A stretch of DNA of 49,107 bases. It comes from a virus (taxonomy: Duplodnaviria; Heunggongvirae; Uroviricota; Caudoviricetes). The stretch lies in IMG/VR virus record IMGVR_UViG_2563366861_000002; one strand, given 5' to 3'. The position numbers and the translations under genes were made by a program. The notes below the pieces were generated by a model. The model searched no databases. It was given only the letters and a program-made list of their open reading frames with translations, and was not told the DNA's origin. This document shows, piece by piece, positions 17,677-23,568 of the stretch (position 1 is its first letter; every line of letters starts with the position of its first letter).

Positions 17677-17936
17677 TTAGTTTCCTTGTTTATGCCTTGC
17701 TGGTGATGTTCTGAAAAGTATAAATGATATTTTTGATTGTAAACCATAGAGCAGAATTATTTTTCTGATGTTGTTTATTGTTTATTTAAATGCAGGGTGG
17801 TTTATATCTCGTCTTGTAGTTTATCCATGCATATCTGCTTGATGATGAGGTTTTTATTTAAGGTATGGTTTTGTGTTTTTTCTGTATTACATGTCAGGTA
17901 TTTTAAAGAATCATTTTTCAGATGGTGGAAAGAACC

Positions 17937-19793
17937 ATGGCATTTAAACACTATGATGTTGTCAGGGCGGCGTCGCCGTCAGATCTTGCGGAAAAGCTGA
18001 CACATAAACTGAAAGAGGGCTGGCAGCCGTTTGGTAGTCCGGTGGCCATAACCCCTTATACCCTGATGCAGGCGATTGCAGCAGAAGGTGATGTGGTCGT
18101 CAGTGGTGCAACTGAGCCGGAGTGGTACTACGTCATCGTACTGGCCGGGCAATCCAATGCCATGGCTTACGGTGAAGGGCTTCCGCTTCCGGATTCATAC
18201 GATGCGCCCCATCCGCGCATTAAGCAACTGGCCCGTCGTAACACAGTGACTCCCGGTGGTGAAGTATGCGTATTTAACGACATCATTCCTGCTGACCATT
18301 GTCTGCATGATGTTCAGGATATGAGTACGATTAATCATCCCCGGGCTGACCTGAGCAAAGGGCAGTACGGCTGTGTCGGACAGGGCTTACATATTGCCAA
18401 AAAACTGCTTCCGTATATCCCTAATAACGCGGGGATCCTGCTGGTACCATGCTGTCGTGGTGGTTCGGCATTCACCCAGGGCACGGAGGGGACATTCAGC
18501 GAGTCCACGGGGGCCAGTCAGGATTCGGCTCGCTGGGGAGTGGGTAAGCCGTTATATCAGGATCTGCTTTTCCGCACGAAGGCAGCATTGCAGAAAAATC
18601 CGAAAAACGTTTTGCTGGCGATATGCTGGATGCAGGGGGAATTCGATATGACGAATGCCAGTTACGCCCAGCAGCCAGCAGCATTTCTTGCAATGGTACA
18701 GCAGTTCCGTGCTGACCTTGCCGGGCTGGCGGCGCAGTGTCACGGTGGAAGTCCGGCATCAGTCCCCTGGATTTGTGGCGACACGACATACGCGTGGAAA
18801 CAAGAACACGGTACGCAATATGAAGTGGTATATGGTGCATATAAAGGTAAAGAATCCCAGCAGATTTATTTTGTTCCCTTTATGACCGATGGTAGCGGAG
18901 TTAATACACCGACAAACAACCCGTCAGAAGATCCTGATATTGCCGGGTCTGGTTATTACGGTTCGGCATCCCGAACGAACAAAAACTGGGTATCATCAAA
19001 TCGCCCGACGCATTTCAGCTCATGGGCGCGTCGTGGCATTATTCCCGATCGTATGGCAACTGCTATTCTGAACGTAGCCGGTCGCACCTTAGCCTTCATT
19101 AGTGGTAAGGCACCGGAAATCAAACCCTCGCCCGGCGGCGACACTCCATCGGGGCCGTCTGATGGTGACACATCCGTTCGTACAGTCTCCCTGCTGCCGA
19201 CAGCCGGAGAGGCTGCTGCGCAGGGCTGGACCATCACCGGCGGCAGTGTTGCGCTGGAAGATGGTGTGTTTAAGGTTACCAAGCAGAGCAATAAAACTTG
19301 GTCCCTGATGCATCCGGTGGATGACGCAGTCTCCCTGCTGACACGGGGTGGCAGACTGAGCTGTAAGTTTCGACTGTCAGGCGCACTGACCAACAACCAG
19401 TTCGGTCTGGGAATTTATCTGTATACCGATGTAGCGTTACCTGACGTCGTGGCGATGACCGGGACTGGTAACCCGTTCCTGATGTCGTTCTTCACCCAGA
19501 CCACAGACGGCAAACTGAATCTGATGCATCACAGGAAAGCAGGAAACACAAAGTTGGGCGAGTTCGGGAATTACAGTAACGACTGGCAGACGCTGGAGCT
19601 GGTGTTCACCGCCGGCAGTGCCACGGTTACTCCGAAACTGAATGGAGTGGCTGGCCCGGCATTCCAGGTCATAAAAGACAGTCTGACACTGGGGCTGAAT
19701 GCGCTGACGCTGACGGATATTACCAAAAATGCAGCGTATGGCGTTGAGATAGAAAGTCTGGTGCTGGAGATAAATGCACCAGCATCATCATAA
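17937..19793 (+). CDS. sialate O-acetylesterase-like protein (prophage NanS-p-type, SGNH/SASA fold)
   Basis: ~618 aa; GQSN motif (VLAGQSNAMAYGEG) of SGNH-type esterases; occupies the Q-tRNA-[stx]-esterase-lysis position known from Stx and related lambdoid prophages. Confidence 0.8.
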   Translation: MAFKHYDVVRAASPSDLAEKLTHKLKEGWQPFGSPVAITPYTLMQAIAAEGDVVVSGATEPEWYYVIVLAGQSNAMAYGEGLPLPDSYDAPHPRIKQLARRNTVTPGGEVCVFNDIIPADHCLHDVQDMSTINHPRADLSKGQYGCVGQGLHIAKKLLPYIPNNAGILLVPCCRGGSAFTQGTEGTFSESTGASQDSARWGVGKPLYQDLLFRTKAALQKNPKNVLLAICWMQGEFDMTNASYAQQPAAFLAMVQQFRADLAGLAAQCHGGSPASVPWICGDTTYAWKQEHGTQYEVVYGAYKGKESQQIYFVPFMTDGSGVNTPTNNPSEDPDIAGSGYYGSASRTNKNWVSSNRPTHFSSWARRGIIPDRMATAILNVAGRTLAFISGKAPEIKPSPGGDTPSGPSDGDTSVRTVSLLPTAGEAAAQGWTITGGSVALEDGVFKVTKQSNKTWSLMHPVDDAVSLLTRGGRLSCKFRLSGALTNNQFGLGIYLYTDVALPDVVAMTGTGNPFLMSFFTQTTDGKLNLMHHRKAGNTKLGEFGNYSNDWQTLELVFTAGSATVTPKLNGVAGPAFQVIKDSLTLGLNALTLTDITKNAAYGVEIESLVLEINAPASS

Positions 19794-19943
19794 AAAGTGA
19801 GCCAGTCAAATGGAAGGTATCGTTAAACTCACCGGTAGTGTCAGTGGGTCGTCTGAGATGCCTGCATGAGTTATCAGAGCCATCAGTACTTAACTGGTGG
19901 CTTTTTTTATTGTTGTCAGCTTCCGGATAACGGGAGACGGGGT

Positions 19944-20159
19944 ATGTACCAGATGGAAAAAATCACAACAGGTGTGTCATACACCACGTCAGCGGTGGGA
20001 ACGGGCTACTGGTTCCTGCAGTTGCTGGACAGGGTTTCCCCGTCTCAGTGGGCGGCAATAGGCGTGCTGGGGAGTCTGCTGTTTGGGCTGCTGACATATC
20101 TGACTAACCTGTATTTCAAAATCAGAGAGGACCGTCGTAAGGCTGCACGGGGAGAGTAA
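19944..20159 (+). CDS. S: class II holin / pinholin (phage 21 S21-like) with dual-start motif
   Basis: MYQMEK dual Met starts; WFLQLLD...[39 protein letters not shown] closely matches S21 as I recall it. Confidence 0.85.
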
Positions 20160-20163
20160 TTCA

Positions 20164-20478
20164 ATGACTCAAAACTATGAACTGATTGTGAAAGGGATCC
20201 GCAATTTTGAGAATAAAGTTACGGTAACTTTAGCGTTACGGGACAAAAAACGCTTTGACGGTGAAATTTTTGACCTGGACATCTCGCTGGACCGTGTTGA
20301 AGGTGCCGCGCTGGAGTTTTATGAGGCAGCAGCCAGAAGGAGCATCAGACAGGTCTTCATGGATGTTGCTGCCGGGTTATGTGAAGGGGACGAGCTGTTG
20401 CCAGAAACGCGCCCCTGTTCAGAGGCGCGGTATACCATAAAAATTAACAGTTCTGATAACTCGATTACGGGTTGTTAG
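20164..20478 (+). CDS. hypothetical protein inserted between holin and endolysin
   Basis: 104-aa ORF with GGGGAGAG RBS; no TM segment; not present at this position in lambda or phage 21 as far as I recall. Confidence 0.55.
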   Translation: MTQNYELIVKGIRNFENKVTVTLALRDKKRFDGEIFDLDISLDRVEGAALEFYEAAARRSIRQVFMDVAAGLCEGDELLPETRPCSEARYTIKINSSDNSITGC

Positions 20479-20533
20479 CTTTTTGCAGTTGGCTTTCCAG
20501 TATCTTTCATTGGTAGCATCCTGATAAATATCC

Positions 20534-21067
20534 ATGAGCGCAAAAATCAAATACGGCCTGTCAGCTGCTGTTCTGGCGCTGATTGCTGCAGGCGCGTCTG
20601 CTCCTCAAATACTTGACCAGTTTCTGGATGAAAAAGAGGGTAACCACACTACGGCATACCGCGATGGTTCCGGTATATGGACCATCTGTCGTGGTGCCAC
20701 AATGGTGGATGGTAAGCCCGTCATACCGGGAATGAAGCTGTCGAAGGAAAAATGCGACCAGGTTAACGCTATTGAACGTGATAAGGCGCTGGCATGGGTG
20801 GAGCGCAATATTAAAGTACCACTGACCGAACCACAGAAAGCGGGTATAGCGTCATTCTGTCCCTATAACATTGGCCCCGGTAAGTGTTTCCCGTCGACGT
20901 TTTATAAGCGGCTGAATGCCGGTGATCGTAAGGGCGCATGCGAGGCGATTCGCTGGTGGATAAAAGATGGTGGGCGCGATTGCCGCATACGTTCAAATAA
21001 CTGCTATGGACAGGTTATTCGTCGTGACCAGGAAAGCGCATTAGCCTGTTGGGGGATAGATCAGTGA
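20534..21067 (+). CDS. R: SAR-endolysin (lysozyme, phage 21 R21-like)
   Basis: 177 aa; N-terminal signal-anchor-release segment ([16 protein letters not shown]), T4-lysozyme-like core with E/D/T catalytic region ([20 protein letters not shown]). Confidence 0.9.
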
Positions 21068-21522
21068 GCAGAGTCGCAGCGATTATTTATACTCTGGTTA
21101 TCTGCACCATCGTCTGCCTGTCATGGGCTGTTAATCATTACCGCGATAACGCCATTACCTACAAAGCCCAGCGCGACAAAAATGCCAGAGAACTGAAGCT
21201 GGCGAACGTGGTAATTACTGACATGCAGATGCGTCAGCGTGATGTAGCAGATCTCGACGCCAGATACACAAAGGAGCTTGCTGATGCTAACGCGACTATC
21301 GAAAGTCTTCGTGCTGATGTTTCTGCTGGGCGTAAGCGCCTGCAAGTCGCCGCCACCTGTGCAAAGTCAACGACCGGAGCCAGCAGCATGGGCGATGGAG
21401 AAAGCCCAAGACTTACAGCAGATGCTGAACTCAATTATTACCGTCTCCGAAGTGGAATCGACAAGATAACCGCTCAGGTCAACTACCTGCAGGAGTACAT
21501 CAGGACGCAGTGCTTAAAATAA
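21064..21522 (+). CDS. Rz: i-spanin Rz
   Basis: N-terminal TM helix then coiled-coil-rich periplasmic domain; overlaps endolysin stop; contains embedded +1-frame Rz1. Confidence 0.75.
21278..21469 (+). CDS. Rz1: o-spanin Rz1 (lipoprotein embedded in Rz)
   Basis: Signal peptide with lipobox (LLGVSAC), Pro-rich mature part ([16 protein letters not shown]), fully within Rz in another frame. Confidence 0.65.
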
Positions 21523-21938: not shown

Positions 21939-22559
21939 ATGAAAGATCAAGATGTTAGGTTCGCGGTGCATCATAAGCTTTTGAAAGAATCGCATTTAGA
22001 TCCAGACTGCCTTGTGGTCGATGAATTTTCCATATCCCTTGGCGCCAGTAGAGCAGACATTGCTGTAATAAATGGTGTTATACACGGGTACGAGCTCAAA
22101 AGTGAATATGACTCTTTGGAGCGTTTGCCTCTTCAAATCAAGCATTATTCTTCTGTAATGGACAAGGTTACTCTTGTCGTAGCTGAGAAACACCTTGAGG
22201 GAGCATTAAAGTTAATCCCAGGTTGGTGGGGCGTTAAAACGGTTTCTGTTGGGCCAAAAGGCGCCATTCTTATAAAGCACATGCGTGGAGAAAAGCTTAA
22301 TCGAAACCATGACACATTGATGCTCGCTCAATTGCTTTGGAAAGATGAATGTATCGACGTACTTGAACGATGGGGCTATTCCAAAGGAATCAAAAGCAAG
22401 CCCCGATTTGAGTTATGGAATATTATTGCGGAAAATATTCCAATAGCGAATCTCAGGCCTGAAGTCAGAACAGCCTTAAAGAAACGCGTAGGCTGGAAAG
22501 TTAAGGCTTGGCAGGCTGAGTCTGCGCCAACCAATAAAGCTGTCTCACGACTAACGTAA
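21939..22559 (+). CDS. predicted PD-(D/E)xK-fold nuclease-like protein (uncharacterised accessory gene)
   Basis: 206-aa ORF, AT-rich; own -10 TATAAT (21905-21910) and AAGGAG RBS; motif VVDEF...RADIAVINGVIHGYELK fits D...D...ExK nuclease core. Confidence 0.7.
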   Translation: MKDQDVRFAVHHKLLKESHLDPDCLVVDEFSISLGASRADIAVINGVIHGYELKSEYDSLERLPLQIKHYSSVMDKVTLVVAEKHLEGALKLIPGWWGVKTVSVGPKGAILIKHMRGEKLNRNHDTLMLAQLLWKDECIDVLERWGYSKGIKSKPRFELWNIIAENIPIANLRPEVRTALKKRVGWKVKAWQAESAPTNKAVSRLT

Positions 22560-23568
22560 TATGGTGCGTATGTGCAACTTTACGCCATTCTTTAGAGCCG
22601 CCAGATTTGTTAGCGCCTAATGATCTTTGGTAAATGTAATCATCCCCCCAACTAAATTTGGAGCCAAAGACTTGATACTCTGGCGAACTAACAAGGGTAG
22701 TACATAAGTTTTTAGTTTGGCCCCATCCATTTCCTTTAACTGCGGTACCTTTTACAAAGATCCATGAGGTATCGTTCGAATATCTCACTGAGACATACTG
22801 AGACATGAAGCGTGGGTCTACGCTCGTAATGGTAGAGCTAGCGGTGGGATAATCACTAAAACTTGGCGTTCTTCCATTGCTAAAATTCTGTACTACGTAC
22901 ATCCAAAGATCGTATTCATGGCGCGGAATATGATGAACTTGATGTTGCGGTATCCCTGCCTGTGATGCCGGGTATGCGGTTGAAGATAAAATCAAGTTTC
23001 TCCACGGAGCTTGGCCTGATAATGTGTTGACCATGCTTAATGCTTGTTGTTTTAAACTATCAGTTGCGTTTTGAATATCTCCAAAATCAATGATTACATC
23101 AATTAAACTAGGATGAATATTTAAGTGGTTAACCAGACTTGTGAATTGGTGCCATGTCTGGGGGGTGATAGACATAGCGAGCCCATTGATTAAGTTGCGT
23201 TGAACAGCATGTATATAGTTTGTTGAATATGCGGGAGAAACAACAGGGATAATTTCCTTACCATTTACTCTAGCATCTTGGATACACATATCTAGAGGAT
23301 GATGGCGGCTCGAACCATGTTTATCTAAATATTTAACATCCAGCAAAACAGGACGATTGGCTTTCCAGGATGCCGCAAGGTTAATACCGAAGTCAGATAA
23401 GTAAGAACTCAAACTCTTCTTGTAGCATTCGTTTTCATAATCCCAGTCTATGTCTGGAATGGTAATGATCGGAGTAAAACCAGAGAGCGTAGTTTGATCT
23501 AAAAGCATCAGAGATTCATATTCAGCAGGCTTCCATTTCAGCTGTGGATAATATTGATGTTGACTCAT
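22501..23568 (-). CDS. uncharacterised 355-aa protein, convergent partner of the nuclease-like gene
   Basis: AT-rich ORF with AAGGAG RBS and promoter-like upstream region; 3' end overlaps 21939-22559 by 59 bp on opposite strand; no catalytic motif recognised by eye. Confidence 0.7.
   Translation of the reverse strand: MSQHQYYPQLKWKPAEYESLMLLDQTTLSGFTPIITIPDIDWDYENECYKKSLSSYLSDFGINLAASWKANRPVLLDVKYLDKHGSSRHHPLDMCIQDARVNGKEIIPVVSPAYSTNYIHAVQRNLINGLAMSITPQTWHQFTSLVNHLNIHPSLIDVIIDFGDIQNATDSLKQQALSMVNTLSGQAPWRNLILSSTAYPASQAGIPQHQVHHIPRHEYDLWMYVVQNFSNGRTPSFSDYPTASSTITSVDPRFMSQYVSVRYSNDTSWIFVKGTAVKGNGWGQTKNLCTTLVSSPEYQVFGSKFSWGDDYIYQRSLGANKSGGSKEWRKVAHTHHITLVVRQLYWLAQTQPAKP

Follow-up and report, generated by a model that had tools for sequence, protein, structure and literature searches.

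The stretch of DNA analysed in this study (the window, 49,107 nucleotides of a virus of the class Caudoviricetes, IMG/VR record IMGVR_UViG_2563366861_000002) carries, inside its lysis cassette, a small gene at positions 20164-20478, which lies between the holin gene (S) and the lysozyme gene (R). This gene is ydfR, a member of the DUF1327 family; it is a named gene, very common in Escherichia coli prophages and uncharacterised, and an extra gene between S and R was already known. We propose that YdfR is a late accessory protein which acts on RNase E and/or RNA and is not a component of lysis, a reading to which we give about an even chance of being correct. Two further aspects appear worth following up, namely the capture of the Shine-Dalgarno (SD) sequence of R by ydfR, and the architecture of the convergent two-gene cassettes in which DUF1327 genes are found.

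The YdfR protein and its family

The gene and the two parts of its product are as follows.

20164-20478, + strand: ydfR-family gene (DUF1327), 104 amino acids, ATG start; Pfam PF07041, E=2.7e-39; PHROG 2735, E=3e-55
20164-20379, + strand: N-terminal domain (residues 1-72), conserved, with three beta strands and then a long helix; predicted local distance difference test score (pLDDT) 77-92 in the AlphaFold2 (AF2) model
20380-20475, + strand: variable C-terminal tail, residues 73-104, a low-confidence linker and a short beta hairpin; pLDDT <50 at residues 77-87

An earlier reading of the window from its sequence only (hereafter the sequence-only reading) had reported an open reading frame (ORF) of 104 codons at this position, and the ORF is a real gene. 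Its product matches DUF1327 with 133.7 bits (cut-off 25) over residues 1-96, falls in a PHROG family to which no function has been assigned, and is 100% identical to the RefSeq 'YdfR family protein' WP_000193285.1; identical DNA is so annotated in many E. coli genomes, and the gene is, as shown below, under purifying selection. Matches to the gene are present in 4284 of 5426 complete E. coli genomes, and are near-full-length (at least 80% of the query) in about 2098 of them.

The protein had been described as soluble-looking, in agreement with its isoelectric point of 4.85, its maximum 19-residue Kyte-Doolittle hydropathy of 0.68, and the absence of any transmembrane segment or signal peptide. 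Searches in Pfam, PHROGs and NCBIfam revealed no similarity to lysis, holin or antiholin families, the only matches being DUF1327 and PHROGs of unknown function; the NCBIfam and PADLOC scans gave no match at all, and hence PADLOC no defence system. Structural searches were equally negative: the sequence-profile search of the PDB returned only chance matches (E>1), and Foldseek found nothing at E<0.01 in the PDB or among viral predicted structures. The window contains no second copy of DUF1327. As for the searched literature, a single paper mentions 'DUF1327', most matches to 'ydfR' are the name of a melanoma cell line, and b1555, the locus tag of the gene in E. coli K-12, occurs in one entry of a microarray table, with a small change.

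Among 1.84 billion representative proteins, a search with the family profile yielded 78 cluster representatives at E<=1e-3, all of them from prophages of Enterobacterales. When one genome per species was scanned (185,579 species), the family was found in Escherichia and Shigella and in two contigs from metagenome-assembled genomes (MAGs), while further searches added Salmonella, Yersinia and Cronobacter to the hosts. The two MAG loci, labelled 'Veillonella parvula' and 'Bacillota' (L011, L013), were not accepted as evidence for additional hosts, their holin and R being E. coli-like (79-97% identical to those of the window) and the contigs probably mis-binned.

The homology and structure comparison suggested with the sequence-only reading thus leads to the YdfR/DUF1327 family and to a predicted beta-beta-beta-alpha domain. 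The AF2 model places three antiparallel strands at residues 5-14, 18-27 and 34-43 and a helix at 50-73; its mean pLDDT was 63.5 when only close homologues were supplied and 75.6 when distant members were added. The alignments show a conserved motif (G47, L50, Y53-E54-x-x-A57) of which Y53, E54 and A57 are invariant across 29-30 diverse members. Distant members of the family consist, over their whole length, of the bare domain of 72-76 residues, and one member is a tandem duplication of it; elsewhere the domain is followed by alternative tails, which give total lengths of 103, 104, 114-116, 161, 176 and 263-287 residues.

The ratio of non-synonymous to synonymous substitution (dN/dS) is 0.38 among 40 close alleles of ydfR, 0.15 in the C-terminal tail, and 0.24-0.33 in comparisons with diverged alleles; judged from these ratios, ydfR is under purifying selection, the constraint being only moderate. 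Many database copies of the gene are frameshifted or fused. An apparent pair of tandem DUF1327 genes in three loci (L105-L107) proved to be one frameshifted gene of the 176-residue type. It should also be mentioned that the tail portion of the YdfR profile hit a repetitive, acidic protein of 1179 residues (P0162) in eight stretches (E=2e-8); by eye, this match rests on ...SLCENGESD... repeats, and is probably a compositional or repeat artefact.

Possible action on RNase E and RNA

The only functional data on the family concern the homologue from the Qin prophage of E. coli K-12 (minus strand of the fetched locus L002, 6055-6366). In a bacterial two-hybrid assay, a signal with Rne(1-597) requires no more of K-12 YdfR than residues 1-72, and Rne(1-598) co-elutes with Strep-YdfR in an eluate that contains DNase-resistant nucleic acid (Göpel et al., 2026; PMC13232886). 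According to the same study, K-12 yields almost no ydfR reads under standard growth. The YdfR protein of the window is identical, at 58 of 72 positions (81%), to the segment of its K-12 homologue that is reported to bind RNase E, which suggests that the allele found here would also bind RNase E and/or RNA, and that it could thereby affect RNA decay.

A mechanism that would accommodate these data may be outlined as follows. The Q-dependent late transcript would be the source of YdfR, a small acidic cytoplasmic protein, with the SD sequence at the end of the holin gene directing its translation. The gene belongs, as the late-strand half, to a compact convergent module whose insertion points lie precisely between the stop and start codons of successive late genes. 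The 72-residue beta-beta-beta-alpha domain of YdfR would bind host RNase E, through the catalytic N-terminal half of the enzyme, and/or RNA. YdfR would in this way modulate the decay of RNA in the late phase of lytic growth, so that, for instance, the late polycistronic transcript would stay whole.

Several observations weigh against this proposal. Over-expression of YdfR in K-12 changed few transcripts and left growth unaffected, and the full-length YdfR fusion gave a two-hybrid signal with one Rne construct only (PMC13232886); the link to RNase E comes from this one over-expression study of a homologue, in which a direct, nuclease-resistant contact was not demonstrated. The dN/dS of ydfR among close alleles exceeds those of the holin gene (0.11) and of R (0.08). 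Moreover, in Escherichia ydfR stands directly after the holin gene in every locus fetched, so that a role related to the holin is possible. Finally, Paradis-Bleau et al. (2014; PMC3879167) count, in their supplements, the Keio deletion of ydfR as one of the orphan-gene mutants with a leaky envelope (CPRG-positive); polarity of the deletion on rrrQ, the lysozyme gene downstream, could be the cause.

An action of YdfR on RNase E at a late stage of induction would make it the first modulator of this enzyme known in the temperate lambdoid phages, and might influence both the timing and the yield of late products, including Shiga toxin (Stx), which is encoded on the same late transcript in Stx phages. 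The gene is matched in about four of five complete E. coli genomes, K-12 included, and in Stx-converting phages.

Genomic contexts of DUF1327 genes

In the Qin prophage of K-12 the gene order is essQ-ydfR-rrrQ-rzpQ, and the order seen in the window recurs in the phages mEp460, BP-4795 and Tritos and in the Stx1a phage Stx1_699. Distant members of the family were found at other junctions between late genes, as listed here.

Between tail genes M and L: L096; L115/L116
Between tail genes L and K: L111-L113
After tail gene I, before J: L098, L108, L114
After the tape measure gene: L095
After Rz: L100, L117
Upstream of other holin families: L101, L109
Between a PF16080 holin and lysozyme: L105

One of these loci (L111) gave no match in a megablast search against sequenced phages. 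The spread of DUF1327 over tail, Rz and holin junctions argues against a dedicated lysis function; it fits a domain that is not lysis-specific, and an accessory gene that is useful whenever the late genes are on. The sequence-only reading had considered that homologues might reveal either a conserved, characterised component of the lysis cassette or an ORF that is not conserved. The ORF is conserved and its family is known, but the homologues are not a characterised lysis component, and many of the distant members are located between tail genes.

A convergent two-gene module

In each of the 12 distant contexts, the DUF1327 gene is followed at its 3' end by a small, abutting ORF on the reverse strand. 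Such an ORF is also present in five of the six Escherichia loci examined in which ydfR is far from R (L030, L008, L009, L093 and L005), the sixth (L013) encoding a YdfR of 206 residues and having no reverse ORF. Over these 17 module loci (12 distant and five from Escherichia), the gap between DUF1327 and its partner ranges from -53 to +49 nt. The partners belong to ten unrelated groups and are soluble, mostly acidic proteins with no match in Pfam or the PDB; the guanine-plus-cytosine (GC) content of their genes, 0.30-0.43, is below that of their loci. One of them (PHROG 25324, 98-100 residues) lies beside DUF1327 at six different genome positions, and the proportions of synonymous differences between its copies (pS 0.70-0.90) are saturated while those of non-synonymous differences (pN 0.11-0.26) are low; such strong purifying selection marks it as a genuine gene that has long been associated with DUF1327.

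The clearest view of the module was provided by Yersinia, where an almost identical block of about 755 bp is present at the tail I|J junction in one locus (L114, 3470-4225) and at the tail M|L junction in another (L115, 3470-4225). In both loci the block reaches from the stop codon of the preceding gene to the ATG of the following one, and the surrounding DNA is unrelated; neither a recombinase nor a flanking repeat could be seen. The block comprises, in this order, an SD sequence and the DUF1327 ORF, a GC hairpin, a reverse ORF of 99 codons, a further hairpin, this one with a T-run, and the SD-like sequence GGGTGA, so that the ends of the cassette can be written as TTAATTAA ... hairpin-T6-ATGGGTGAAATATG. 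The occurrence of the same block at two junctions implies that DUF1327 and its partner move as a unit. On the other hand, near-identical DUF1327 domains are accompanied by unrelated partners, both in the distant loci L100 and L117 (87% identical) and in the E. coli loci L030, L008 and L093 (95-98% identical). The reverse gene therefore appears to be exchangeable cargo, and DUF1327 the constant part.

What is left of the partner gene in the window became apparent from the alignment with locus L030, which has the same ydfR allele and an intact partner of 79 residues.

20479-20518, - strand: remnant of 40 nt, the 3' end of the reverse 79-residue ORF (PHROG 21218)

Relative to L030, about 315 nt are missing from the window, between the short repeats TCCAGAT and TCCTGAT. 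Of 80 fetched viral loci, seven contain the intact 79-residue partner, as do 103 of 5426 E. coli genomes; the partner-less form is much commoner. To judge from this alignment, the window carries a degraded module, in which the reverse partner has been deleted and only ydfR remains; most E. coli copies are in the same state.

We tentatively put forward, as a reading with perhaps some chance of being right, that DUF1327 is the constant late-strand part of previously undescribed mobile convergent two-gene cassettes of lambdoid prophages of Enterobacterales, that the DUF1327 protein serves the cassette, and that orphan ydfR genes are leftovers after loss of the cargo. The architecture of a constant late-strand gene and an exchangeable reverse cargo was not found in the literature searched. 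Within such a cassette, binding of RNase E and/or RNA by DUF1327 could keep the late transcript intact and translatable where it runs antisense through the cargo gene; alternatively, the DUF1327 protein could shut the cargo down late. Whatever the mechanism, the convergent pattern offers a simple handle for finding exchangeable cargo genes of prophages.

In a more specific version of this relationship, DUF1327 would act late to antagonise or regulate what the reverse cargo gene encodes, or its mRNA; the cargo gene would be expressed from the prophage, and the orphaned ydfR of the window would be left with no job or a secondary one. The convergent pairing in 17 of 17 module instances, the movement of both genes as one block, and the retention of the PHROG 25324 partner beside DUF1327 through saturating synonymous divergence at six positions would all be accounted for, and the GC content of the reverse ORFs, lower than that of their loci, is as expected of prophage-expressed cargo. 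Yet the combination of near-identical DUF1327 domains with unrelated partners, from ten families, speaks against specific recognition, and led us to down-weight the idea of an antidote; furthermore, most E. coli copies have no partner and are nevertheless intact and under purifying selection (about 2098 genomes, compared with 103 with the partner). Overall, we regard a cognate relationship of this kind as unlikely.

Insertion of ydfR between the holin gene and R

The features of the lysis cassette that bear on the insertion are the following.

19944-20159, + strand: class II holin (phage 21 S-type), 71 amino acids, dual start MYQM; PF04971 'Bacteriophage P21 holin S', E=2.3e-32; PHROG holin families
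20149-20156, + strand: SD sequence GGGGAGAG in the 3' end of the holin gene, serving ydfR; anti-SD pairing -8.5 kcal/mol
20519-20533, + strand: leader of R, TCCTGATAAATATCC, conserved in the comparison of ydfR-bearing cassettes and lacking an SD sequence
20534-21067, + strand: lysozyme R, 177 amino acids; Pfam Phage_lysozyme, E=1.1e-24; PHROG endolysin

The gene thus sits, as the sequence-only reading had placed it, within the lysis cassette, between a class II holin (the RefSeq label of the identical holin locus is 'class II holin family protein') and lysozyme R, whose N-terminus is rich in Ala, Gly and Leu as in signal-anchor-release (SAR) endolysins. The holin stop codon (20157-20159) is followed by a spacer of 4 nt and by the ATG of ydfR. 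The ribosome-binding site had been judged good, which is confirmed by the pairing energy of GGGGAGAG: a value of -7 kcal/mol or lower is reached at only 8% of the 984 ATGs of the window.

That ydfR is an extra gene at this position became evident from the spacing of S and R in related phages. The Stx2 phage P13374, whose holin is 98.6% identical, has no ydfR, and its R starts 4 nt after the holin stop codon, i.e. where ydfR starts in the window, behind the same SD sequence with the same pairing energy. Among 434 phage records encoding this holin, a relative of YdfR is present in about 101, and about three quarters are without one. The start of ydfR lies 4 nt past the holin stop codon in all 88 Escherichia-type loci with an intact holin. 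In all the ydfR-bearing cassettes compared, whatever the type of ydfR tail, R is preceded by the conserved ATAAATATC[C/T]ATGA; in the three that were scored, the anti-SD pairing before R was -2.8 kcal/mol (the window) and +0.3 kcal/mol (BP-4795 and L030). These comparisons show, at the level of sequence, that the insertion of ydfR took over the ribosome-binding site of R, and that R was left without an SD sequence. Translation of the endolysin is for this reason probably lowered or altered relative to that of the holin, whatever YdfR itself does. Cassettes with and without ydfR would then probably differ in endolysin dosage, which bears on the tuning of lysis. Such capture of an SD sequence by ydfR was not found in the literature searched. 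In K-12 the stop codon of ydfR overlaps the start codon of R (ATGA), an arrangement that would permit translational coupling of the two genes, while in the window they are separated by a spacer of 55 nt that holds the gene remnant.

The sequence-only reading had further supposed that the gene is transcribed with the late genes. It lies on the late strand, and an own promoter neither has room, given the gap of 4 nt to the holin gene, nor shows: no sigma-70-like site was found upstream of ydfR, and the promoter and terminator scans around the gene gave nothing above shuffled expectation. Late expression of ydfR from the Q-dependent transcript thus appears probable from the layout of the genes. 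As to the suggestion that ydfR is a late-expressed moron, the gene does behave like one in being present or absent among close relatives and in having relatives at other late junctions, but the absence of an own promoter disqualifies it as a classical moron.

Two loci, in prophages otherwise nearly identical, that at first seemed to have ydfR without R or without a holin turned out on inspection to be due to insertion sequence (IS) elements, which interrupt the lysozyme gene in one (L037, 3700-5500) and replace most of the holin gene in the other (L075, 2225-2900); ydfR is intact in both.

The sequence-only reading had suggested that the gene could modulate the timing of lysis, but no observation made here connects the protein with it. 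The constant position of ydfR raises the question of whether the protein could regulate lysis in trans, with cytoplasmic YdfR tuning the triggering of the pinholin or the release of the SAR endolysin in the manner of T4 RIII or P1 LydB. Such a role would agree with the location directly after the holin gene, with coupling-like 4-nt spacing, in every Escherichia-type locus, with the occurrence of DUF1327 also between a holin of a different family (PF16080) and lysozyme, with the acidity of YdfR as opposed to the very basic cytoplasmic tail of the holin, and with the listing of the Keio ydfR mutant as envelope-leaky (PMC3879167). We nevertheless consider it improbable. About three quarters of the phage records with this holin do without ydfR, the protein has neither a membrane segment nor any similarity to lysis or antiholin families, and members from Yersinia, Cronobacter and metagenomes are located between tail genes, far from those for lysis; in addition, a single insertion that spread through flanking homology would equally explain the position after the holin gene.

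Another explanation needs no YdfR protein at all: the inserted DNA would act only in cis, by uncoupling R from the SD sequence in the holin gene and shifting the endolysin-to-holin ratio. The lack of an SD sequence before R in three of the three ydfR cassettes scored (-2.8 to +0.3 kcal/mol, versus -8.5 kcal/mol in P13374) is what one would expect in that case. A dispensable protein is hard to reconcile, however, with an ORF that has been kept open in thousands of copies and many tail variants at a dN/dS of 0.15-0.38, or with the conservation of the 72-residue domain as far as Yersinia and Cronobacter at sites unrelated to lysis, and there is in our opinion little chance that the effect in cis is the whole story. 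Least credible of all is that ydfR is a functionless, decaying leftover of a degraded module in a defective prophage, for, while the deletion of the partner in the window, the many frameshifted or fused database copies and the relaxed constraint relative to holin and R would fit, the gene is intact in the plaque-forming phages mEp460 (98% identical) and BP-4795 (an Stx phage, 58%), and purifying selection on it is measurable.

Other features of the region

The remaining features of the lysis region are listed below.

20453-20487, + strand: terminator-like hairpin at the 3' end of ydfR, followed by CTTTTTG; weak and G-U rich (pattern scan and fold), such sites not being above chance in the region
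21064-21522, + strand: Rz spanin; Pfam Phage_lysis, E=6.9e-41; PHROG Rz-like spanin
21278-21469, + strand: Rz1-like lipoprotein ORF, embedded in Rz in another frame; LGVSAC lipobox

The GC content of ydfR is 0.47, compared with 0.51-0.53 in the neighbouring genes, and the RNA fold of the spacer between ydfR and R is not unusual (z = -0.36).

Directly upstream of the lysis cassette, a gene on the + strand (17922-19793) encodes a sialate O-acetylesterase of the SASA family (623 residues) with DUF1737 and DUF6645 domains; this type of esterase is annotated in Stx prophages as 9-O-acetyl-N-acetylneuraminic acid deacetylase, yjhS. Between the esterase and holin genes, at 19876-19914, lies a hairpin with a T-run that resembles a terminator. 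Downstream, between Rz/Rz1 and the small terminase gene, there is a convergent, defence-like gene pair (21939-22559, + strand, and 22501-23568, - strand), one gene of which belongs to the sce7726 family (PADLOC 'cll', E=3.8e-31), while the other matches Pfam Beta_protein (E=8e-56) and PADLOC PD-Lambda-2_C (E=4e-32). The genome that best matches the window (NZ_CP019005.1, 2651096-2700202; L104) is identical to it in the lysis region. Position-by-position identity over the 49 kb is only 44%, from which it follows that the prophage of the window differs from this counterpart elsewhere by indels or mosaic segments.

Comparison with known systems

The closest known relative is YdfR of K-12 (b1555, P76160), encoded in the Qin prophage, which belongs to the same family, occupies the same position (essQ-ydfR-rrrQ-rzpQ), and likewise starts 4 nt after the holin stop codon. 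Its C-terminal tail is unrelated, ending in ...SEKVESYLQHQYSFKIENPANKHERPHHKYL in K-12 as against ...CEGDELLPETRPCSEARYTIKINSSDNSITGC in the window.

Morons of lambdoid phages, such as bor and lom of lambda and gp15 of HK97, are a concept due to Juhala and Hendrix. The gene ydfR resembles them as optional DNA inserted exactly between two late genes, variable among close relatives and lower in GC. Unlike them, it would depend on the late transcript, and the moron-like unit would rather be the reverse partner, which is missing in the window.

T4 RIII and P1 LydB are cytoplasmic or soluble regulators of lysis encoded next to holins. What YdfR has in common with them is that it is a small non-membrane protein encoded beside a holin gene; it differs in lacking any sequence or family similarity to them and in having relatives that are also found away from lysis genes, and it is not known to have a lysis phenotype.

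Concerning the fold, YdfR was also considered beside the double-stranded RNA-binding domain, which has the arrangement alpha-beta-beta-beta-alpha and conserved RNA-contact motifs; the domain of YdfR is beta-beta-beta-alpha in the AF2 model.

Among phage proteins that act on RNA decay, Srd of T4 binds the N-terminal half of RNase E and stimulates the decay of host mRNA (Qi et al., 2015; PMC4649665, as cited in PMC13232886). A possible likeness, by analogy and through the data on K-12 YdfR, is that of a small cytoplasmic phage protein reported to be in contact with the catalytic half of RNase E. The family scans, in which Srd itself was not compared, revealed no homology of YdfR outside DUF1327, and Srd is not regarded as a homologue. 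The gene for Srd is an early one and its phage virulent; ydfR, by contrast, belongs to the late genes of temperate phages. A second possible functional analogue, and not a homologue, is gp37/Dip of phiKZ, an inhibitor of the RNA degradosome (PMC4980113; PDB 5ft0).

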